Of a stretch of 64,000 nucleotides of DNA, positions 4,365 to 57,112 are shown one piece after another. The first letter of the stretch is position 1, and each line of letters starts with the position of its first letter. This DNA is from Nitrosomonadales bacterium (GTDB lineage Bacteria; Pseudomonadota; Gammaproteobacteria; Burkholderiales; Gallionellaceae): contig JACRNY010000005.1 in NCBI GenBank assembly GCA_016214695.1, forward strand, positions 80,372 through 144,371, written 5' to 3'. The notes below the pieces were generated by a model that saw only the letters and a program-made list of their open reading frames with translations, was not told the DNA's origin and did not search any database. The position numbers and the translations under genes are program-made.

Positions 4365-5114
4365 ATGAACGAACTTTCGCTTGAGAACCTGTCGACATAT
4401 TGGGCAACGCCCGTGGTGGCGACCAACATCGTCGTTTTTCTCAATCTTCTGGGCGCCCTCATACTCGGCCTGATCGTCGGTTACGAACGTTCCTACCACG
4501 GACGTGCCGCAGGCATGCGTACCTATGGTCTTGTCTGCATGGCCGCCGCCGCACTGACGGTCATCGCCGGCTATCCGAACTACTGGTTCGGCGGACAGGT
4601 AAACAGCTATCTGGCGGGTGACCCCACCCGCGTCATCCAGGGCATCGTCACCGGCATCGGCTTCCTTGGCGCGGGCGTCATCATGCGCGACGGGCTCAAT
4701 ATCAGCGGCCTGACCACCGCCGCTTCCATCTGGGCATGCGCGGCCATCGGCATCATGGTGGGGGTAGGGTTCTATGTGTCCGCGATAATGCTCACCTTGC
4801 TCGCCGCGCTTTGCATGATGTGGGTGTCCAAGCTGGAAAGCTGGCTGCCCTCGCGCCCGGCCATCGCCGTCACTCTGGAGTTCCAGAAGAACTTCGTACC
4901 GCAGGAGAGCACGCTGCGTGAAGTCGTCTACAGCAACGGCTACGAAATCGCCACCGGCTCTTTCGCCATCCGCTCCAGCAACGAGAAGCTGCAATGGCAC
5001 TTCGTCGCCATCGCCCTCAGCAAGAGCAGCGGCGTACCGATGAATGAACTGGCCAGCGGCTTGAGCACCCTGGAAGGTGTGGAAGACTTTTCGCTCTCAC
5101 ACGCGCGAAACTGA
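4365..5114 (+). CDS. MgtC/SapB family membrane protein
   Basis: GYERSYHGRAAGMRTYGLV, QGIVTGIGFLGAGVI and GLTTAASIW motifs. Start placed at ATG 4365 after AGGA (the ORF track starts at 4281). Confidence 0.85.
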   Translation: MNELSLENLSTYWATPVVATNIVVFLNLLGALILGLIVGYERSYHGRAAGMRTYGLVCMAAAALTVIAGYPNYWFGGQVNSYLAGDPTRVIQGIVTGIGFLGAGVIMRDGLNISGLTTAASIWACAAIGIMVGVGFYVSAIMLTLLAALCMMWVSKLESWLPSRPAIAVTLEFQKNFVPQESTLREVVYSNGYEIATGSFAIRSSNEKLQWHFVAIALSKSSGVPMNELASGLSTLEGVEDFSLSHARN

Positions 5115-5117
5115 TCT

Positions 5118-5864
5118 TCAGACCGGGATATCCTGATCGAAAAAACGGTGTTCCAGATTGAAGCGGGCGGCGAGGTGCTCGCCCAGTGCCTGCACACCAT
5201 AACGCTCGGTCGCATGATGCCCGGCAGCGATGAAGGCGACACCGGTCTCCTGCGCGACATGCACGTTCTGTTCTGATATCTCCCCGGTCAGGAAGGCATC
5301 CACCCCCAACGCCACGGCCTGCTCGAAATAGCCCTGCGCTGCCCCGCTGCACCAGGCGATGCGTGCGATATTGGGATTGGCATGGCCGATGACCTGCGGC
5401 TCGTGCTGCAAGGCATGCTGGATATGACGGGCAAGCTGTTGCAACGTCTGCGGTTGCGCCAGGGTCCCATAGGCGGCGATATCCTGTTCGCCGAAGCGTC
5501 CCTGCTCGACGAAACCGAGCCGCTCGCCCAGCTGCGCGTTGTTGCCGAGAGCGGGATGGGCATCCAGCGGCAGGTGATATGCCAGCAGGCTGACATCGTG
5601 TTTCAGGAGGTGGGCGACACGCCGCTTCTTGATCCCGGTGATGGCGGCATCCTCGCTGCGCCAGAAATAGCCGTGGTGCACCAGAATGGCATCCGCACCC
5701 CAGGCAGTCGCAGCCTCCAGCACGGCTTGCGAGGCGGTGACGCCCGTGGCGATGCGGCGGACTTCCGCCCGGCCTTCGACTTGCACCCCGTTCGGGCAAT
5801 AGTCACGAAATCGGCTGACCGCCAGCTCGCTTTCGATATAATCCCGCAACTCGTTCAATCGCAT
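5118..5864 (-). CDS. Nif3/YbgI-like dinuclear metal protein
   Basis: DYCPNGVQVEG, LVHHGYFW, YHLPLDAHP and AGHHATE motifs. Confidence 0.92.
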   Translation of the reverse strand: MRLNELRDYIESELAVSRFRDYCPNGVQVEGRAEVRRIATGVTASQAVLEAATAWGADAILVHHGYFWRSEDAAITGIKKRRVAHLLKHDVSLLAYHLPLDAHPALGNNAQLGERLGFVEQGRFGEQDIAAYGTLAQPQTLQQLARHIQHALQHEPQVIGHANPNIARIAWCSGAAQGYFEQAVALGVDAFLTGEISEQNVHVAQETGVAFIAAGHHATERYGVQALGEHLAARFNLEHRFFDQDIPV

Positions 5865-49234: not shown

Positions 49235-49380
49235 GGTCACCTTTAGAAAATCCATTTTTCTGGATGAAACACTAGGAGCCGCGCAGCGAATGACGAGACA
49301 TACCAAATGGGTAGGCGAGGAATGAGCGAGCACGCGACAACGTGGTTCGCCAGAACAATGGATTTAATAAAGGTGTTACC
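49235..49380. mobile_element. ~146-bp MITE-like element between fliQ and fliR
   Basis: Imperfect ~35-bp TIRs: ggtcacctttagaaaatccatttttctgg versus reverse complement ggtaacacctttattaaatccattgttctgg. Confidence 0.7.
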
Positions 49381-50169
49381 GTGATCAGCTTCACCAGCGC
49401 GCAACTTCTAGCCTGGTTCGCCGCCTTCATCTTCCCGCTCGCCCGCATCCTCGCGCTCATCGCCAGCGCCCCGGTACTCGGCAACCGGCAGATCCCCGTC
49501 CGCATCAAGGTCGGACTGGCAGTGGCCATCACCATGATCGTCGCACCCACGCTGGACATCCCCACCGATCTCGACCCCGCATCCGCGCAAGGCGTGCTTG
49601 TCCTGATACAGCAGATCGTCGCCGGGCTGACCATGGGTTTCGCCATGCGTCTCGTCTTCACCGCCGTGGAGATGGCGGGCGACCTCGCCGGCATGCAGAT
49701 GGGCCTGGGTTTCGCCACATTCTACGACCCGCAGAACGCCACCTACCTGCCCGTGATCGCACAGTTCCTCGGCATCATCGCCGCGCTCACCTTCCTCGCC
49801 ATGGATGGTCATCTGTACATGCTGGCGGCGCTGGTGGAAAGCTTCCATTCCTTCCCCATCGCCGTGGGCACGCCCTCTGCCGGAGCATTCCGTACCCTGG
49901 TGGAATGGGGCGGCGCCATGTTCAGCCACGCGCTGCAACTCTCGCTCCCCCTGATCGGCGCGCTGCTCATCACCAATCTGGCGCTCGGCATCCTCACCCG
50001 CAGCGCACCGCAGCTCAACATCTTCGCGGTCGGCTTCCCGGTCACACTGGCGGTCGGCTTCATCGCACTGATGCTGGTGCTGCCTTTCCTCGCACCATTG
50101 CTGGGAACCTTCGTACGTGAAGGCCTGGATGTGATTGCGCGGGTGATGCAGCAGGCGGGGGGGCGTTAA
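49381..50169 (+). CDS. fliR: Export gate FliR
   Basis: GTG start; AGMQMGLGFA, DGHL and RSAPQLNIFAVGFP motifs. Confidence 0.95.
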   Translation: MISFTSAQLLAWFAAFIFPLARILALIASAPVLGNRQIPVRIKVGLAVAITMIVAPTLDIPTDLDPASAQGVLVLIQQIVAGLTMGFAMRLVFTAVEMAGDLAGMQMGLGFATFYDPQNATYLPVIAQFLGIIAALTFLAMDGHLYMLAALVESFHSFPIAVGTPSAGAFRTLVEWGGAMFSHALQLSLPLIGALLITNLALGILTRSAPQLNIFAVGFPVTLAVGFIALMLVLPFLAPLLGTFVREGLDVIARVMQQAGGR

Positions 50170-50228
50170 CGTGCAGCTAAGGGCGTCCCGGCGTCCTAAG
50201 GGAGCGAACTTGAGTGCAAGGATTAGGC
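50164..50228 (-). other. Terminal degenerate attC (65 bp)
   Basis: 78-bp family with an internal ~14-nt deletion and a mutated R'' (GCCTAAT); R' GTTAACG overlaps the fliR stop. Confidence 0.75.
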
Positions 50229-50516
50229 GTATTTGAACTCGATCTTATGGATCTTTTTTAGATCCACAGTCTGCTTGGCTTGCCATAGATCGTAATTGTC
50301 TTGCATCATCAACCAGCTTTCGGGGGTGCGTCCCAATGCCTTGGAAAGACGAAGAGCCATCTCAGGGCTCAAACCACTGGTTTCGTTCAAAACGCGATTA
50401 AGAGTCGAGGCGGCAACGCCCAATTTGAGGGCGAGCTCCCTGCAGCTGATTTCGTTCGGCGCAAGATAAACCTCTTGAATAAATGCGCCGGGGTGTGGCG
50501 GATTGTGCATAGCCAT
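50223..50516 (-). CDS. higA: HigA-family antitoxin (HTH_3)
   Basis: MAMHNPPHPGAFIQE, SPEMALRLSKALG and PESWLMMQDNYDL motifs. Confidence 0.92.
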   Translation of the reverse strand: MAMHNPPHPGAFIQEVYLAPNEISCRELALKLGVAASTLNRVLNETSGLSPEMALRLSKALGRTPESWLMMQDNYDLWQAKQTVDLKKIHKIEFKYA

Positions 50517-50590
50517 TAGTGATAATCCTCGTAATCTAAAACAAATGCGTTGCCGTTCTCAAATTCAAACGTGACGCGCCAATTACCATT
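50516..50590 (-). pseudogene. higB: 3' remnant of a HigB toxin gene
   Basis: Minus frame reads NGNWRVTFEFENGNAFVLDYEDYH*, and the TAA overlaps the higA ATG. The 5' part is replaced by the transposase element. Confidence 0.85.
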
Positions 50591-50599
50591 CGAAAAACC

Positions 50600-51409
50600 G
50601 GGGACAGACCACGGTTTCTCTCCTACTCCAAATCCAGTTCCCCCGATTCCGGCATTCCCGATTTTCGCGGACGCCCGGATTGACCCGGTGCAGCGCGCCT
50701 GCCGATCGTTTCGCTCACCGCTGATGCAAAGCGCTCACTCCCCAGCGCAAAGTTGCCATTAGTCGCCCGACGAATCTCATCCACCAGCCCTGGCTCCAAC
50801 TCATAACGAAAGAGATCGCGGTAAGCCGCCTGACGGGACACCGCGTCGCTACCCAGCGAGGTGTATAGCAGATGCGGTTGCACCAAGGCATCCATCTCCC
50901 CCTGCGCATTGGCCCGGTAGCTGGACCAGCGATACTCCGCTGGATGCGTCACCATATTCGCACGCACGGGGTTCAACTCGATGTAACGCTGGCATCCCAA
51001 AAGGTAATCTTCCTCTTGCACCGGGCACGACCGAAAGCGTCCTTCCCACAAAGTGCCGCTGCGCCGATAGACGCGATTCACATACTGCACATAACGCTGC
51101 CCCAGCGACTTCATCAAAGCACCGCCCGCATCAGCGCGCTCTGAAGAAATCAGCAGGTGAACATGATTCGTCATCAGCACATAAGCATGAATCCGGCAAC
51201 TGGACTTGCTGGCGTACTCGGAAAGCCAATCCAGATAGCGGCGATAGTCCTCATCGGCGAAAAAACAGGGCTGGCGATTATTGCCACGCTGGATAAGGTG
51301 GATAGGTACATTCGGCAATGCGATGCGGGCGCGGCGCGGCATGGCGAACTCCGACTGCGGAAGGACGAAGGGCAGTCTATCAAAGATCAGGAAACCGTGG
51401 TCTGTCCCC
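50600..51409. mobile_element. REP-flanked Y1 transposase element (RAYT/REPtron-like)
   Basis: Perfect 19-bp inverted ends ggggacagaccacggtttc (50600-50618) and gaaaccgtggtctgtcccc (51391-51409). Confidence 0.8.
50623..51342 (-). CDS. HUH Y1 transposase (REP-associated tyrosine transposase family)
   Basis: HLIQRGNNRQ, MTNHVHL (HUH), LWEGRF, YIELNPVRA and WSSY motifs. Confidence 0.92.
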   Translation of the reverse strand: MPRRARIALPNVPIHLIQRGNNRQPCFFADEDYRRYLDWLSEYASKSSCRIHAYVLMTNHVHLLISSERADAGGALMKSLGQRYVQYVNRVYRRSGTLWEGRFRSCPVQEEDYLLGCQRYIELNPVRANMVTHPAEYRWSSYRANAQGEMDALVQPHLLYTSLGSDAVSRQAAYRDLFRYELEPGLVDEIRRATNGNFALGSERFASAVSETIGRRAAPGQSGRPRKSGMPESGELDLE

Positions 51410-51482
51410 TATTATTAGTAAAAGAATAGAGCAAGGGCGAAACAAATTATGGCGCCTATGTGCATGGCTTGGTGCTCTCTAA
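51410..51482 (-). pseudogene. Truncated cassette: 5' end only (MHIGAIICFALALFFY*), no attC
   Basis: Begins at R' GTTAGAG; ATG at 51465; sequence breaks at the REP end. Confidence 0.6.
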
Positions 51483-51551
51483 CGTGAAGGTAAGGGGCTG
51501 CGCTTTAGCGCAGTCCCAGCCCGAAGGGCGAACTTGACCGCAGGGTTAGGG
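51477..51551 (-). other. attC (75 bp)
   Basis: CCCTAAC...GGTCAAG...CTTAC...GTTAGAG; related to the 78-bp family. Confidence 0.88.
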
Positions 51552-52094
51552 GTTTTCTTTGTATTGAGCAACAAGTTTTTCATATGCACTTCCGGTTGCA
51601 TCAAAACCAGCCTTTGAGCGCGAGCTGACTGTGAAAATGAGAAAGAATTCGCCTTCTTCACCATATGTCACACGTTCCCAGTTACCCGAACCTTTCGGAA
51701 AGAAAGTAAACGATTTGAATTTCTTTCCATCTGCCGTGACAAGTGGATTTACTTCTTGAATCTCAATACCGGGTGATTCCTTTAAAAAAATGTTTTTATC
51801 CCTCGCAATAAGCATTTCGAGTGTTTTGATCTCAGGGTCGCGAGGCTTGAAGATGGCCTTTGCGTACATAACGGTCTCGGCATTTGCAAAAGTAGCATTG
51901 TCGGGTGCCAATGCATTAACTTTGAAGTTGAAGCACTGTTCACGGTCTTGGTGCCACCCCGAAATCATAGCCAACTTGGGCCACCAGTAAAAATGCAAAC
52001 CCTGTTCACCAGGGACTGCAATTTTTTCTATCTCGGCTTGCGCAGTTGGCACAAGACTCAAAGCTGCAATGATGAGTAGTGAAAGAGTACGCAT
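51546..52094 (-). CDS. Cassette gene: secreted hypothetical protein (182 aa)
   Basis: True start ATG 52094; signal peptide MRTLSLLIIAALSLVPTAQA; stop lies in R''. Confidence 0.8.
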   Translation of the reverse strand: MRTLSLLIIAALSLVPTAQAEIEKIAVPGEQGLHFYWWPKLAMISGWHQDREQCFNFKVNALAPDNATFANAETVMYAKAIFKPRDPEIKTLEMLIARDKNIFLKESPGIEIQEVNPLVTADGKKFKSFTFFPKGSGNWERVTYGEEGEFFLIFTVSSRSKAGFDATGSAYEKLVAQYKENP

Positions 52095-52099
52095 ATAAC

Positions 52100-52168
52100 T
52101 CCTAACGTTCGAGGTAAGGGGCAATTTGCGGCCTGCCGCAAATTGTCCCATTGACTGATGGGTTAGGT
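52100..52168 (-). other. attC (69 bp)
   Basis: ACCTAAC...GTCAAT..caatttgcggc/gccgcaaattg..CTTAC...GTTAGGA. Confidence 0.88.
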
Positions 52169-52522
52169 GTCGCCTTTGCGAAGGGCAGCATTGAGTACCT
52201 CCTGGATGACTGCGGCACCGACAAGACGAGAGCCCTCTTGAACAGTGAAGCGAAAGCCGGGGAAGAGGCGACCGGCTTGGTATTCGGGGACCTGCAGCCA
52301 CACATTCGCAAGGACTGTCTCTCCCGGCGCCGCGGAGTCCTGACCGATGTACTCATGTGCAGCGTCATTCAGTGTGCCGGGCAGCCCGAAGTCGTGGCTC
52401 GGCCTGTAGCCAGACTGCGCCGGATGGGAGCGACCGCCGCGCTCTGTAGCCAAGAACTCAATCCTGGCCACGAGATCCGGCGGACGGACAGTTATGCGGG
52501 GAATTCTGGGCTCGGGCGACAT
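52163..52522 (-). CDS. Cassette gene: stand-alone EF-Tu domain III-like beta-barrel protein
   Basis: ARIEFLATERGGRSHPAQSGYRP...PGET...GFRFTVQEGSRLVGAAVIQEV resembles the EF-Tu C-terminal domain. Confidence 0.65.
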   Translation of the reverse strand: MSPEPRIPRITVRPPDLVARIEFLATERGGRSHPAQSGYRPSHDFGLPGTLNDAAHEYIGQDSAAPGETVLANVWLQVPEYQAGRLFPGFRFTVQEGSRLVGAAVIQEVLNAALRKGDT

Positions 52523-52570
52523 TGGAAGCTTTCGAGTGGGCAGGCGATGCTGCGCAACGGTTGCTGCGAC

Positions 52571-52648
52571 ACCTAACGTGCAGCTAAGGGGCGCGCCGAA
52601 GGCGCGTCCCAGCGACCAAAGGGAGCGAACTTGAGCGTAAGGTTAGGG
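52571..52648 (-). other. attC (78-bp signature family)
   Basis: CCCTAAC-CTTAC-GCTCAAG...CTTAG-CTGCAC-GTTAGGT. Confidence 0.92.
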
Positions 52649-53005
52649 GCCATCTACTGCCCCGACATCCATGCCATCATAGTCAAGAACTCCAAAGTGT
52701 TCGGCTACTTTATAGAGCTCCTGATTTCTCTGATTCAATGAATCAACAGAATGGGTTTCAATGCGATCTGCGCGTAGAAAAATTGTCTCTTGGTCTTCGT
52801 CTTCTGGAGCTGGCTCCAAAAAACCTATTACTTCATACCCGTTGTTTTCAAGATGGTGACCAATCTGAGTTAGTTTTTCTTTGTCACTATCCACAAAGAA
52901 AAATGACCACCTGCACGAATCGTCAATATCAAAGGGAGCTTTCCCCTCCTTATAAAGTTGCCGGGTGTGATCAAAGAACTCTTGTAATGTTTCGACTGTA
53001 ATCAT
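52643..53005 (-). CDS. Cassette gene: acidic RraB-like (DUF695-associated) protein
   Basis: WSFFF..LENNGYEV and terminal LDYDGMDVG pattern resemble RraB-like proteins. Confidence 0.55.
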   Translation of the reverse strand: MITVETLQEFFDHTRQLYKEGKAPFDIDDSCRWSFFFVDSDKEKLTQIGHHLENNGYEVIGFLEPAPEDEDQETIFLRADRIETHSVDSLNQRNQELYKVAEHFGVLDYDGMDVGAVDGP

Positions 53006-53011
53006 TGTGGC

Positions 53012-53070
53012 CTCTAACGTAAAGGTAAGGGGCGCGCGTTAGCGCGTCCCGCTTGACCGACGGGTTAGGC
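53012..53070 (-). other. attC (59 bp)
   Basis: GCCTAAC-CCGTC-GGTCAAG...CTTAC-CTTTAC-GTTAGAG. Confidence 0.9.
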
Positions 53071-53398
53071 TTGGGTCAAAAAGCAGAAACGCACGCCATG
53101 AACCCCAGCCCAGCAACACGGCGAAAATTAGTGAATAAACTTCCTGCCCAGAAACCATGCCGTAATCGAGAGACGCGGCGAGTGCCAAGACGGGAACAGC
53201 CCAACAAAGCAATTTCATTGCAACGTGCCCCCAAGACGGAAGGCGCTTAACTCGCGCTGCAACCAAGAGCACGCCGATTGCGGCAAACAATGCCGACACA
53301 ACAAAACCAACAATATCACCCTCGAACATACTGGGCGCAAACGCAGCGATCACAGCGCAATTAACAAGCAACGCGATAAGCCAGCCGAGTGTGCGCAT
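53039..53398 (-). CDS. Cassette gene: 4-TM membrane protein
   Basis: Four hydrophobic segments; the C-terminus extends into the attC. Confidence 0.75.
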   Translation of the reverse strand: MRTLGWLIALLVNCAVIAAFAPSMFEGDIVGFVVSALFAAIGVLLVAARVKRLPSWGHVAMKLLCWAVPVLALAASLDYGMVSGQEVYSLIFAVLLGWGSWRAFLLFDPSLTRRSSGTR

Positions 53399-53403
53399 AA
53401 GAA

Positions 53404-53485
53404 GCCTAACGTTTCGAGTTAAGCGACATCACGCATGACTGCTCGTTGCGCTCTGCCGCACTGTTTGCGTGATGTCTGCTTGAAC
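53404..53485 (-). other. Truncated attC (lacks R''): 75-bp attC-only unit
   Basis: 53411-53485 is identical to 55280-55354 and 55856-55930; it starts at the L'' box GTTCAAG. Confidence 0.85.
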
Positions 53486-53556
53486 GTGCAGCTAAGGGGC
53501 GCGCCGAAGGCGCGTCCCAGCGACCAAAGGGAGCGAGCTTGAGCGTAGGGTTAGCG
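53479..53556 (-). other. attC (78-bp family)
   Basis: CGCTAAC...GTTCAAG (non-canonical R' contributed by the downstream remnant). Confidence 0.9.
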
Positions 53557-53566
53557 GACATGTGCA

Positions 53567-53866
53567 TCATCGAGAATCAAAGAGGAAGACACCGAGAACA
53601 ATGATGCACAAAATCGCAAGCACGACACCAAGCCCTCGAACAACCCAGCCCGTGATAACCGCATACCTTGGGGTGTTCGTTCCATCGGGGTTGTTGAACC
53701 CCCCAGGCAAATCGTCTTCCAGCGTAGCCACCCAACCATTGATCAAAATTGCCTCCGCAACAATTAAGAATGCCCACCAAAACTTCAAACCTGAGATTGA
53801 AGAGAGGCCTGCTGCAAGCAACGTTATAACCAGCAACCAGATCGATGGCAAGAGCACTCGTTTCAT
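53567..53866 (-). CDS. Cassette gene: small 3-TM membrane protein
   Basis: Hydrophobic 99-aa ORF filling the cassette. Confidence 0.75.
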   Translation of the reverse strand: MKRVLLPSIWLLVITLLAAGLSSISGLKFWWAFLIVAEAILINGWVATLEDDLPGGFNNPDGTNTPRYAVITGWVVRGLGVVLAILCIIVLGVFLFDSR

Positions 53867-53869
53867 GTT

Positions 53870-53947
53870 CGCTAACGTGCAGCTAAGGGGCGCGCCGAAG
53901 GCGCGTCCCAGCGACCAAAGTGAGCGAACTTGAGCGTAGGGTTATGC
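53870..53947 (-). other. attC (78-bp family)
   Basis: GCATAAC...GTTAGCG. Confidence 0.92.
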
Positions 53948-54304
53948 CTAGTGTGAGACATATGCTTCTGTTCTGAGAAACCTGCAAAATTCATCTCGAA
54001 GGTCATCGTCTTCTTTGCCAAATTCCTTTTTGTGCTCCGCTAAATAAGCGAGATAAAGGTGGCCCTTGATTATCTTTAACTCGTTTTCGATGAGGAAGTC
54101 TCTACCTTTCACTCCATTATTAACCTGGTTGCTCAGCTCCTTTAGCGCTTCGTTCGCGGCCTTTTTAGTGAATGCTGATTCTGGAATATACCAAGCATCT
54201 TCTTCTGTTTTTGGTTTAGGCATGGGCTCGCAATAGTTTTTAGCGATTGCGAAATTACTTACAAGGAGCAGCGCAAGCCAACAGCAAATAACTCGTGACC
54301 TCAT
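53948..54304 (-). CDS. Cassette gene: secreted hypothetical protein
   Basis: Signal-peptide-like MRSRVICCWLALLLVSNFAIA; fills the cassette. Confidence 0.78.
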   Translation of the reverse strand: MRSRVICCWLALLLVSNFAIAKNYCEPMPKPKTEEDAWYIPESAFTKKAANEALKELSNQVNNGVKGRDFLIENELKIIKGHLYLAYLAEHKKEFGKEDDDLRDEFCRFLRTEAYVSH

Positions 54305-54835
54305 TTAATTTCTCCAAGAGGCATAACGTGGAGCTAAGGGGCGCGCCGAAGGCGCGTCCCAGCGACCGGAGGGAGCGAACTTGAGCGCAGGGTTAGGTGG
54401 TTCTCCAGCATTGATAGTTCTTTGCACCTCAGCCTCGTCGGATATATAGAAAATGGGTTCCATTTTTTTATGTTCTATTACCTCGGTTGCCCCATTGATA
54501 GTTACATTCACATAGCCGGGATGAGCTCTGGCGGGCCAATCATGTTGTGCCCATTCCCAGTATTGCGGATGATTCGTACTTCTGCCCGTTGCCTCGAATA
54601 GAGTTCTTCCGTGCTTACCTTTAACAATTAGAACCGTATCATCTACATCAAAAAGAGGGCTGTAATATCGTAGTTCAATAGTTACGTCCTCTCTCTGATA
54701 TCCGGTAGGTAGCGTTGGATACCAAACCGGTAATCTTGATGCTGGTGATAGCGTGAAGTCGGACTCCAATAACCCTCGTATCGGAGAACAGGCTGAGAAC
54801 AATACCAAGAATAGAAGGCCGGTGATAATCCTCAT
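54305..54835 (-). CDS. Cassette gene: putative lipoprotein that reads through its attC
   Basis: Lipobox LFSAC; the last ~31 codons come from the attC and the next cassette's leader. Confidence 0.75.
   Translation of the reverse strand: MRIITGLLFLVLFSACSPIRGLLESDFTLSPASRLPVWYPTLPTGYQREDVTIELRYYSPLFDVDDTVLIVKGKHGRTLFEATGRSTNHPQYWEWAQHDWPARAHPGYVNVTINGATEVIEHKKMEPIFYISDEAEVQRTINAGEPPNPALKFAPSGRWDAPSARPLAPRYASWRN
54321..54398 (-). other. attC (78-bp family)
   Basis: ACCTAAC...GTTATGC. Confidence 0.92.
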
Positions 54836-54841
54836 AACTTC

Positions 54842-54901
54842 ACCTAACGTCTGACATGAGGGGCCGCCGATAGGCGGTCCCTCTCGATGGATGGGTTGGG
54901 C
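54842..54901 (-). other. attC (60 bp, distinct type)
   Basis: GCCCAAC-CCATC-CATCGAG-AGGGACCGCC...GGCGGCCCCT-CATGTCAGAC-GTTAGGT. Confidence 0.88.
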
Positions 54902-54904
54902 ATC

Positions 54905-55267
54905 TTAGCCAAGACTGAGGCCCTTTTCTTTGGCTAGGCTGCGTGGGGATTGGCCAAATTCGGACACGATATCGGTTCGTGCCCCGGCCGCCAAAATGGC
55001 TTGTATGGCCTTTATGTTTTCTTGACGAATGGCAACGTGAAGAGGGGTTTCACCCATGTCGCCAACAGCATTGACGTCTGCGCCATGTTGAATAAGCAGA
55101 AGCGCTCCGTCAGTGTCCTTGCGCCAAAGAAGCACATGAAGCGGTGTATCGCCATCAACGTCAGTGCTACCAATATCAACCGCTTGATTCCCCAAATGCT
55201 CAGGAAACAGACAGTCAGAGGTCGATTGCAAAACCTCGTTTAGTGATCGGGCTGGCGTTTTACTCAC
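54905..55267 (-). CDS. Cassette gene: ankyrin-repeat protein
   Basis: GDTPLH, GETPLH and GQSP ankyrin motifs. Confidence 0.88.
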   Translation of the reverse strand: MSKTPARSLNEVLQSTSDCLFPEHLGNQAVDIGSTDVDGDTPLHVLLWRKDTDGALLLIQHGADVNAVGDMGETPLHVAIRQENIKAIQAILAAGARTDIVSEFGQSPRSLAKEKGLSLG

Positions 55268-55272
55268 GAGAT

Positions 55273-55366
55273 GCCCAACGTTTCGAGTTAAGCGACATCA
55301 CGCATGACTGCTCGTTGCGCTCTGCCGCACTGTTTGCGTGATGTCTGCTTGAACGAGGGGTTCGAC
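55273..55366 (-). other. attC (94 bp, aadA-like L boxes GTTCAAGC/GCTTAAC)
   Basis: GTCGAAC-CCCTC-GTTCAAGC..gacatcacgca/tgcgtgatgtc..GCTTAAC-TCGAAAC-GTTGGGC. Confidence 0.9.
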
Positions 55367-55482
55367 GTGAGAGATTGCGGCCTGGCTGTGATAAATGAAG
55401 CAGCGCGTTCATCTCTAAAAGCGCGGACATTTGATGTACCGCTTCTTCTCATTCATCCTTCGCCGCGATCTATCGCGTTGAA
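55279..55482 (-). mobile_element. 204-bp cassette with no conventional gene (only a 54-aa attC-overlapping ORF, 55288-55452)
   Basis: Bounded by crossover points GTTCAAC and GTTGGGC. Confidence 0.8.
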
Positions 55483-55554
55483 CGTGCAGCTAAGGGGCGC
55501 GCCGCAGGCGCGTCCCAGCGACCGCAGGGAGCGAACTTGAGCGTAGGGTTAGAG
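55477..55554 (-). other. attC (78-bp family)
   Basis: CTCTAAC...GTTCAAC. Confidence 0.92.
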
Positions 55555-55845
55555 TACATCAAGCTTTGACAAATGTTCTTTGTACCTAGCGGCATGTTCC
55601 AATAGCTCCATGTTCTCTGCTGCGAATAGAAGTTCTTGCCAAAAAAGATGCTCTTCTGCGTACCCACTATGACTTTCACCAATGCCTTCTAATGAATCTA
55701 AAGCAAGCTCAAATTCGGTATGGTGAAGATACTCGATGTATTGCTCTTCCCACTCCGCAGGTGTGCTGAGCACGACCGGCAGAAAATATCTTGCTGCTGC
55801 AAGATGACGCAACGAAGTTTTGAGTTCATCGGGGTATGGTCTCAT
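55549..55845 (-). CDS. Cassette gene: small acidic helical hypothetical protein (immunity-protein-like)
   Basis: 98 aa, Glu-rich (EYLHHTEFELALDSLEGIG); stop lies in R''. Confidence 0.7.
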   Translation of the reverse strand: MRPYPDELKTSLRHLAAARYFLPVVLSTPAEWEEQYIEYLHHTEFELALDSLEGIGESHSGYAEEHLFWQELLFAAENMELLEHAARYKEHLSKLDVL

Positions 55846-55848
55846 AAA

Positions 55849-55942
55849 CTCTAACGTTTCGAGTTAAGCGACATCACGCATGACTGCTCGTTGCGCTCTG
55901 CCGCACTGTTTGCGTGATGTCTGCTTGAACGAGGGGTTCGAC
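55849..55942 (-). other. attC (94 bp) of the first cassette
   Basis: Same sequence as 55273-55366 apart from the cassette-dependent R' (GTTAGAG). Confidence 0.9.
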
Positions 55943-56017
55943 GTGAGAGATTGCGGCCTGGCTGTGATAAATGAAGCAGCGCGTTCATCTCTATTCGCCG
56001 CGATCTATCGCGTTGAA
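55855..56017 (-). mobile_element. First cassette (163 bp): copy of 55279-55482 with a 41-nt deletion
   Basis: Identical except for loss of the segment at 55418-55458. Confidence 0.85.
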
Positions 56018-56040
56018 CGTAAAGTAGACACCCTAAAAAA
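56012..56040 (-). other. Putative attI site
   Basis: Last GTT crossover (G/TTCAAC) before intI, preceded by a 5-nt spacer and degenerate L box TGTCTAC; no attC palindrome upstream. Confidence 0.55.
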
Positions 56041-56116
56041 TGCCGAGAAAGGCACCTTCGAGACGTACAATCTGGCATCAACTCTGCAATGCCTTGTTTT
56101 TGTTGAAGGAGAAATT

Positions 56117-57112
56117 ATGGTAACCCCTAAAATTTCCGATAAAAGCACCACGGCGCAACCTCCCAAATTATTGGATCAAGTCCGCGATAAGTTGCGGGTG
56201 AAGCACTACAGCATTCGCACCGAACAAGCCTATACGGGCTGGATTAAACGCTATATCTATTTTCACGGCAAGCGCCACCCCAAAGACATGGGCGCGGCAG
56301 AGATAGAGGCTTTTCTGACAAATCTGGCTGTCGAGGGCAATGTTTCCGCGTCCACACAAAACCTGGCCAAGAGTTCATTGTTATTCCTCTATCGCGAGGT
56401 TCTTGAAATTGAATTGCCCTGGCTGGATAACGTGACACAGGCCAAAGTACCAAAGCGCTTGCCGGTTGTCCTGACGGTATCGGAAGTTCAGAGCGTGTTG
56501 TCGCAATTGAATGGCACGCATTTGTTGATCGCATCGTTACTGTACGGCGGCGGGATGCGTTTGATGGAGGCGGTGCGCTTGCGCGTCAAGGATGTGGATT
56601 TCGAGCGGCGCGAGATTCTGGTACGCGAGGGCAAGGGGTTCAAGGACAGGGTGACGATGTTGCCGGAAACGATCATCGATTCGCTCAAGGCGCACATGGC
56701 AAGGGTCAAAGCATTGCATGCGGAAGATCTGGCGCAGGGCTATGGTGAGGTGTACATGCCATTCGCGCTGGACAAGAAATATCCAACAGCCGGAAGAGAC
56801 TGGAGCTGGCAGTATGTTTTCCCGTCAAAGAATCTGTCGGTCGATCCGCGTTCGGGCAAAACGCGCCGCCATCATGTGGATGAAAAAGGTGTACAGCGTG
56901 CGGTGAAGCAGGCCGTGCGCGATGCAGAGCTCACCAAACCCGCCACGCCGCACACGCTGCGCCATTCCTTTGCCACGCATCTGTTGCAATCGGGCTACGA
57001 CATCCGCACCGTGCAGGAGCTGCTCGGCCATTCCGATGTTTCCACCACCATGATCTACACGCATGTGCTGAACAAGGGCGGCAGAGGTGTGGTGAGTCCG
57101 CTGGACAGGTGA
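56117..57112 (+). CDS. intI: Integron integrase (331 aa)
   Basis: RBS GAAGGAGA; [32 protein letters not shown] and TTMIYTH motifs; integron-specific insert [29 protein letters not shown]. Confidence 0.97.

Follow-up and report, generated by a model that had tools for sequence, protein, structure and literature searches.

Most integron cassettes of environmental bacteria encode proteins without known function. The integron cassette ORFans described so far, among them the Hfx_Cass5 family and the cassette proteins of structural genomics, are short, promoterless genes with a single open reading frame (ORF) whose stop codon lies in the attC site, and they are found in environmental chromosomal integrons. 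The orphan or polyvalent immunity proteins are small, solo proteins as well, found in heterogeneous arrays of small genes (Zhang et al. 2012, PMC3482391). The elongation factor EF-Tu is a target or co-factor of TreTu (PMC9825190), CdiA-CT NC101 (PMC5737660) and Doc (PMC7180214), and the Serratia protein Rhs2 is an antibacterial toxin that targets or exploits EF-Tu (bioRxiv 10.1101/2025.10.28.685041). Here, we analyzed a stretch of 64,000 nucleotides from a Nitrosomonadales bacterium (contig JACRNY010000005.1, positions 80,372 to 144,371), hereafter the window, which carries a gene of the same build as these cassette ORFans, for a small, solo protein as the immunity proteins also are; unlike most cassette ORFans, it has a clear origin in a core translation factor. 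The analysis showed that this gene is a selected, promoterless single-gene cassette of a chromosomal integron, encoding a soluble protein of 119 amino acids, with nothing beyond a barrel derived from EF-Tu domain III, and we tentatively propose below that it may work as a decoy.

52163..52522, minus strand: ORF of the EF-Tu domain III protein (EF-Tu-D3), starting with ATG and ending with TAA, 119 amino acids; residues 17-109 are an EF-Tu-domain-III-like beta-barrel and residues 1-16 a low-confidence N-terminal tail

Residues 17-109 of the product aligned with residues 307-394 of the Acinetobacter EF-Tu 6mij, that is, with domain III only, and in this HMMER alignment the motifs were in register: FLATERGGRSHP..SGYRP of the ORF corresponded to LSKEEGGRHTP..NGYRP of EF-Tu, PGET to PGDN, and FTVQEGSRLVG to FAIREGGRTVG. 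When the single sequence was compared with the PDB by phmmer (E=6e-7), EF-Tu accounted for 59 of the 60 matches listed (E<=0.13), and the 60th was an unrelated reductase (0.71) matched by chance. The Pfam model GTP_EFTU_D3 (PF03143) aligned with residues 17-109 at E=1.1e-4 and 22.9 bits, slightly missing the gathering score of 27, and the relatives P0140 (33.8 bits) and P0168 (37.5 bits) were above this score. With the EF-Tu models of NCBIfam, the ORF covered only positions 306-393 of 394, i.e., the last ~90. A profile built from 78 diverse family members found EF-Tu in the PDB at E=4e-20 and 75 bits, and neither EF-1A, SelB, CysN nor anything else beyond bacterial and mitochondrial EF-Tu was matched there; therefore, the family descends from bacterial EF-Tu. 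The first-pass annotation, made from the letters alone, had described a 119-residue ORF with EF-Tu domain III motifs, leaving its strand unstated, and the HMMER alignment, the phmmer search and the family profile confirmed it. Its statement that the GTPase domain is missing was also borne out, as an ORF of 119 residues in a cassette of 471 bp between two attC sites holds neither the GTPase (G) domain nor domain II. The protein fails the definition of a translational GTPase, or of EF-Tu proper.

The fold had been named as the point on which the domain III assignment could fall, and the predicted structure upheld the assignment. AlphaFold2, run on the family alignment, gave an all-beta barrel at residues 17-109 with a pLDDT of 91.5 and a pTM of 0.83. 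Foldseek against the PDB returned EF-Tu in all of the top 50 matches, aligned on domain III with a probability of 1.0, and the superposition had an rmsd of 1.3-2.3 Å across 97-99 residues. The model and the Foldseek matches thus agree on the six-stranded beta-barrel found at residues ~300-393 of EF-Tu. Likeness to EF-Tu domain III amounts to ~30% identity over ~93 residues on the same barrel, with the GGR, GYRP, PG(D/E) and (R/Q)EG.R.VG motifs in common. Unlike EF-Tu, the proteins of the window family are free-standing, with 105-125 residues and without the G domain or domain II, carry Leu, Val or Ile in place of Thr382, have a helical insertion of four residues and a DAxH motif, and are encoded in a mobile cassette rather than in str/tuf operons.

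The boundaries of the cassette were set by sequence reading and attC calls, and the features that define it are as follows.

52106..52576, minus strand: EF-Tu-D3 gene cassette, 471 bp, single ORF

52101..52167, minus strand: attC of the EF-Tu-D3 cassette, an imperfect hairpin of 67 nt (R'' CCTAACC ... R' GTTAGG) with a fold of -25.9 kcal/mol and AAC/GTT paired

52572..52647, minus strand: attC of the preceding RraB-like cassette, whose R' sets the 5' boundary of the EF-Tu-D3 cassette; fold -25.8 kcal/mol

50167..55850, minus strand: cassette array of ~11 units with all genes on the minus strand; G+C ~0.50-0.53 against ~0.60 in the flanks

56114..57112, plus strand: intI, integron integrase, TIGR02249 at 493.9 bits (cutoff 265), E=2e-148, with Phage_int_SAM_4 and Phage_integrase domains

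The ends of the cassette are the TT in the R' core of the upstream attC (GTTAGGT, 52576) and the G in the R' of its own attC (52106), and the TAA stop of the ORF lies inside the R'' core CCTAACC of that same attC. The attC sites of the array were located by blastn with known attC copies, and ~10 were found from 50167 to 55552, all on one strand. The site at 52572-52647 belongs to the main attC repeat family of the array, 72-76 nt long, with copies that are 93-97% identical at 53483-53554, 53872-53944, 54324-54397 and 55481-55552, and the sites at 51478-51550, 52101-52167, 53013-53069 and 54843-54900 are divergent. The intI gene, a tyrosine recombinase gene that together with fliR delimits the low-G+C island holding the ORF, is divergent from the array, and, counted from intI, the EF-Tu-D3 cassette comes about ninth. 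A consensus scan, the only promoter analysis made, found no sigma-70-like promoter on the minus strand within the cassette upstream of the ORF; therefore, expression would need read-through from upstream. The unit is then bounded by attC sites, lies in a co-oriented array beside intI and contains a single ORF that is promoterless by that scan, and the flanking hairpins together with the TIGR02249 match corroborated the earlier call of an integron cassette. We regard both the homology to EF-Tu domain III and the status as an integron cassette as near certain.

The family to which the protein belongs is large. A word-indexed search gave 30 close relatives of 69-148 residues with 54-88% identity, none with extra domains; this tight, integron-borne subfamily (alignment A1, 54-88% identity) was used for recovering related loci. 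When 1.84 billion representative proteins were searched exhaustively with a profile, at least 1,874 clusters (50% identity) were matched at E<=1e-3; at E<=1e-10 the number was 484, and most of the best 150 matches had a length of 105-125 residues. Hundreds of diverse full-length relatives have equal length and start exactly at the domain II/III boundary. JGI, NCBI and UniRef label the relatives as 'translation elongation factor EF-Tu-like GTPase', 'elongation factor Tu' or 'EF-Tu C-terminal domain-related protein', and named relatives in Planctomicrobium (P0221), Zhouia (P0232) and Saccharospirillum (P0246) are 36-44% identical to the window protein. The proteins called 'EF-Tu C-terminal domain-related' are the same family, with the same length and solo genes, and the window protein differs from these relatives in that it lies in the tighter, integron-borne subfamily A1. 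In the literature searched, no paper used this name or treated a stand-alone domain III. Thus, the family is already named in databases, with a name that has no function attached; what is new is a known domain in a free-standing, mobile form, in a family named only in databases.

The gene is under purifying selection, with a dN/dS of about 0.1: the Nei-Gojobori analysis of 13 genes gave 0.09 for the least diverged pair, L005/L008 (dN 0.016, dS 0.166), and a median of 0.12. This bears on the possibility that the ORF is spurious or a decaying fragment of tuf, to which the single-sequence Pfam score below the gathering threshold and the lack of a promoter in the cassette could point. The dN/dS value, the confident AlphaFold2 model, the intact attC sites on both sides, and the hundreds of diverse full-length relatives with the same length and the same start at the domain II/III junction argue against it, and we consider such an origin extremely improbable. 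Selection and family breadth together effectively refute the pseudogene or spurious-ORF reading.

We then compared the surroundings of the relatives. In total, 43 loci were fetched, 25 of them from species-representative genomes by means of alignment A1 and the others as contigs encoding selected relatives, and ~20 distinct gene neighborhoods were examined. Canonical attC hairpins flanked the homologue in L002/L003, L004, L005, L007, L008, L010, L011, L017 and L027; in L014, L016, L030-33, L036 and L042, the flanks were judged to be attC by eye, as some of the relatives' loci were inspected in this way. In several of these cassettes the stop codon was within R'', as in the window, and L004, L007, L017 and L042 have an IntI homologue encoded upstream on the other strand. 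The neighbors were unlike in every locus and included DMP19, DUF4304, DUF2199, DUF4844, TIR_2, SLATT_2, DUF3024, BamE, Hfx_Cass5, LysE and Cupin proteins; in L030, the relative lies beside families of the cassette ORFan kind. An identical gene of 107 residues (P0269) was found on two contigs of one sample (L038 and L039, at 5001-5324 in each), with ~140 bp in common upstream, differing neighbor genes, and a 'GCTACGAAA(A)CCTAAC' repeat on both sides, which is direct evidence of a unit moving on its own. Among the more distant members, that of L035 (Bacteroidota) belongs to an array of small genes sharing one orientation, and those of L034 and L037 stand isolated. No conserved two-gene operon of the type II toxin-antitoxin kind was found: the window cassette has a single ORF, and the neighbors vary from locus to locus. 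Therefore, the family is a solo, self-sufficient unit, and its close subfamily is strongly associated with integrons. The array of L030-L033 (1677-3668) was observed to carry P0184, the commonest close relative (116 blocks of the collection), together with adjacent TIR_2 and SLATT_2 cassettes, a pairing typical of abortive-infection or conflict systems.

Some relatives are longer than the bare domain. Proteins of at least 160 residues made up 44 of 179 in the first set of relatives, and 46 extensions of at least 55 residues outside the domain, almost all mutually unrelated, were found among 270 relatives. When the extra regions of 47 longer relatives were compared with Pfam, NCBIfam and PADLOC, most had no match. 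The partners that were recognized comprise Barstar (P0045), Cys_rich_CPCC (P0033), an ADP-ribosylglycohydrolase that matched the Tri1 immunity hydrolase NF041672 best, at 1.7e-56 (P0140), and an AbiEii nucleotidyltransferase (P0135); P0095 had a MafI match below the threshold (20 bits vs. a cutoff of 31). In the PADLOC comparison of the fusion proteins, the AbiEii domain of P0135 was the only consistent match, alongside one marginal REase_II (E=0.0094). Since the joining of unrelated immunity domains in 'polyimmunity proteins' has been described (PMC3482391), these fusions lean toward a conflict or immunity role. By this analogy the fusions hint at a part in microbial conflict, each partner being a single case.

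A further N-terminal module of ~60-80 residues, resembling the C-terminal domain of L7/L12, was observed in P0055, P0101 and P0088; the resemblance is weak and sub-threshold in P0055 (E=0.0045, Pfam) and was seen by eye only in the other two. The C-terminal domain of L7/L12 is the stalk domain that recruits EF-Tu, and, if the module is real, two mimics of the translation machinery would be joined in one protein. The match in P0055, below threshold as it is, hints at translation-factor partners, and it is one reason to consider that free domain III binds EF-Ts or domains I/II of EF-Tu and damps nucleotide exchange or ternary complex formation, as a growth brake or persistence-type cassette would do. 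Domain III does take part in the EF-Tu:EF-Ts interface, and such complexes were among the Foldseek matches (1aip, 1efu and 4pc1). However, selection should act against a growth inhibitor that travels alone and lacks an antidote, and this does not fit a widespread family kept by purifying selection; besides, no antitoxin-like partner was seen and the L12 match is below the threshold. We judge a role as a modulator of translation to be improbable.

Conservation was computed across the same 78 diverse members, with E. coli numbering anchored on T382 of the GRTVG motif. The best-conserved positions (72-100%) are those identical to EF-Tu: A306, L311, G316, G317, R318, G325, Y326, R327 and P328, and further on P352, G353, P365, G371, F374, E378, G379, V383 and G386. 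Other positions are specific to the family, namely a D-A-x-H-x-Y motif (D53-A54-x-H56-x-Y58) with D53, A54 and H56 each at ~59%, S37 at 78%, L86 at 81%, and an insertion of four residues with respect to EF-Tu (PE..Q, residues 80-83) that forms a short helix at 79-82 in the AlphaFold2 model. In the close subfamily, the motif reads LNDAAHEY and H43/D44 are also conserved. These family-specific positions, absent from EF-Tu, and the fact that the invariant positions shared with EF-Tu are mostly Gly, Pro or Phe, are consistent with an exapted barrel, in which the EF-Tu-like residues would be only fold determinants and the function would reside in DAxHxY, H43/D44 and the 80-83 insertion, serving a new, unrelated ligand. 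Against this, the conservation of R318, R327 and E378, charged surface residues shared with EF-Tu, exceeds that of the family-specific motif, and in the broad family none of the family-specific motifs is invariant. An exapted barrel appears rather unlikely to us.

The equivalents of R318, E378 and G379 (R330, E390 and G391 in Thermus) are kept in 90-96% of the 78 members. In EF-Tu, these residues belong to the side of domain III that is turned toward domain I and the tRNA T-stem, and in the Thermus ternary complex they contact the T-stem. This suggests that the barrel alone could bind the T-arm or the acceptor region of tRNA, either shielding or sequestering tRNA from tRNA-directed toxins, or recruiting tRNA to a fused or partner enzyme. 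The fusion to an AbiEii-type nucleotidyltransferase speaks for such a module, as MenT toxins, which are related to AbiEii, modify tRNA acceptor ends; the fusion of another member to Barstar, an RNase inhibitor, also speaks for it. The T-stem is recognized by EF-Tu (PMC8565323). The other T-stem contacts, however, are poorly kept (Q329 29%, T338 22%, R377 22%, T382 6% and H319 3%), and the family has a median net charge of -1 and is not basic. In addition, uncharged tRNA is not bound by EF-Tu even with all three domains (PMC8565323), and isolated domain III should therefore bind very weakly. A tRNA-binding module is thus a possibility to which we give little credence; if it were true, no smaller tRNA-binding module derived from EF-Tu would be known.

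The conservation of G316 and E378, which are sites of kirromycin-resistance mutations, together with the frequent presence of resistance genes on integron cassettes, also raises the possibility that free domain III soaks up elfamycins of the kirromycin/enacyloxin class, drugs of the EF-Tu domain I/III interface. Elfamycins, however, bind only where domains I and III are both present, and on the ribosome the sensitive form of EF-Tu is dominant. A weakly expressed cassette could hardly be expected to sequester the drugs stoichiometrically, and a link to antibiotics is absent from the contexts. We consider an elfamycin decoy very unlikely.

The reading that we prefer, held tentatively and as possible rather than probable, is that the protein is a stoichiometric binder in the guise of EF-Tu domain III, an orphan, immunity-like decoy. 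The protein would be neither an enzyme nor a GTPase, and would work by stoichiometric binding, displaying in trans the conserved GGR / GYRP / EG-loop face of EF-Tu domain III. This face could capture a factor that otherwise docks on EF-Tu domain III, such as an antibacterial toxin entering the cell, Doc or another toxin-antitoxin kinase, or a protein of a phage, and translation would then be protected. Expression might be obtained through read-through from the integron promoter, or through reshuffling of the cassette toward attI. There is circumstantial support for this decoy: the best-conserved residues are those common to EF-Tu, the gene travels alone as a cassette in arrays where genes of conflict type abound, and rare relatives are fused to Barstar, a Tri1-like hydrolase and AbiEii. 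The neighboring cassettes of conflict type include ankyrin, TIR, SLATT, DMP19 and DUF4304. The first-pass annotation had proposed a decoy or sensor against toxins or phage, or a tRNA-binding module, with a survey of gene neighborhoods as one check; the ~20 neighborhoods examined revealed a solo cassette amid conflict-type genes, and a toxin partner was not found.

Several observations weigh against the decoy. No adjacent toxin gene was found in the ~20 distinct neighborhoods (43 loci fetched), and no phage homologue was detected in a scan of viral contigs or in a BFVD fold search, where giant-virus translation GTPases were the sole matches. The window protein matched 0 families among the PADLOC-DB defense models and none of the PHROGs. 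The cassette lacks its own promoter and lies ~3.5 kb from intI, and the search of sequencing runs for expression found groundwater metagenome DNA only, and no RNA. Thr382, on a loop of domain III, is the phosphorylation target of Doc (PMC7180214). The earlier report of Leu at this position proved correct, EF-Tu Thr382 aligning with Leu100, and Thr occupies it in only 6% of the 78 members; with the phospho-acceptor absent in 94%, a decoy for Doc would therefore be at best a competitive binder. Among the toxins, the CDI toxin of E. coli NC101 binds domain 2 of EF-Tu in its structure, not domain III (PMC5737660), and TreTu modifies the P-loop, not domain III (PMC9825190); a need for domain III has been demonstrated for none of the cited EF-Tu toxins. 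Gly and Pro account for many of the conserved residues, which may do no more than determine the fold, recognized partners are present in only ~4-6 of the 47 long members, with the remainder unmatched, and some of the long members may be gene-calling artefacts.

A broader version of the decoy reading, which we find rather unlikely, is that integron cassettes spread a free EF-Tu domain III that serves the translation machinery as bait, a mobile mimic of a core host protein reduced to one domain. Toxins or phage factors aimed at EF-Tu would be intercepted by this mimic or, in fusions with effectors such as AbiEii, sensed by it, in a manner that could be likened to the integrated decoys of plant immune receptors. 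If true, this would be a new class of molecular-mimicry defense built on a translation-factor domain.

With respect to the immunity proteins of polymorphic toxins, a further likeness may lie in the occasional fusions to immunity domains, Barstar and the Tri1-type ADP-ribosylhydrolase, single examples among the 47 long members. Toxin-immunity pairs are defined by an immunity gene placed immediately behind a co-oriented toxin gene, and none of the family members in the ~20 neighborhoods had such a place; the arrays here, besides, are integron cassettes bounded by attC. The Imm catalogue of Zhang et al. 2012 does not list the family and has 0 mentions of EF-Tu (PMC3482391). For a cassette protein, EF-Tu-D3 is unusually tractable, with a clear origin, a confident model, a large family and a conserved surface motif. 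Should it prove to be a domain III mimic, integrons would trade in host-protein decoys, and the protein would offer a handle on toxins or phage factors that dock on EF-Tu domain III.

The remaining cassettes and other features of the array include the following.

52643-53005, minus strand: RraB-family protein (regulator of ribonuclease activity B), 120 amino acids, PF06877 at E=9e-13; cassette immediately upstream of EF-Tu-D3

54905-55267, minus strand: ankyrin-repeat protein cassette

50623-51342: IS200-like Y1 transposase of the RAYT type, at the distal end of the array

50223-50516, minus strand: HigA-like HTH gene, at the distal end of the array

The RraB-family cassette adds to this array a further small protein of the mimic or inhibitor type, from RNA metabolism. 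Other cassettes encode two small membrane proteins and two secreted or lipoprotein-like proteins, and no toxin-like neighbor gene was found for the EF-Tu-D3 cassette in the window or for its relatives in L001-L004 and L030-L043. The first cassette (55549-55845) encodes a helical protein of 98 residues with an 'EFELALDSL' motif, which is reminiscent of MafI-type immunity proteins; the comparison of this protein with NCBIfam gave no match. Ankyrin repeats are a listed class of immunity proteins (PMC3482391).

At the distal end, the region 5' of the HigA-like gene retains only the C-terminal ~35 codons (...NGNWRVTFEFENGNAFVLDYEDYH*, 50516-50656) of a candidate toxin, putatively of the HigB/RelE type. 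The rest of the candidate HigB-type toxin appears to have been replaced by the RAYT-type transposase, leaving a toxin-antitoxin cassette with its toxin cut off. An attC remnant of the main family at 50167-50214 abuts the stop codon of fliR (49342-50169); therefore, the array ends flush with the flagellar export operon.

A hairpin-forming repeat of 83 bp was observed in three copies, at 53398-53480, 55277-55349 and 55851-55925. The last copy and ~90 bp beyond it, just upstream of intI and presumably attI, are duplicated within the array at 55277-55480, the stretch beyond the repeat being 55350-55480 vs. 55926-56016. Because of this duplication, the ORF at 55304-55540 and the long reading of intI (55880-57112) share their first ~37 codons. 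This arrangement has the appearance of an attI/intI 5' region that was partly duplicated, or of a second class of attC-like element.

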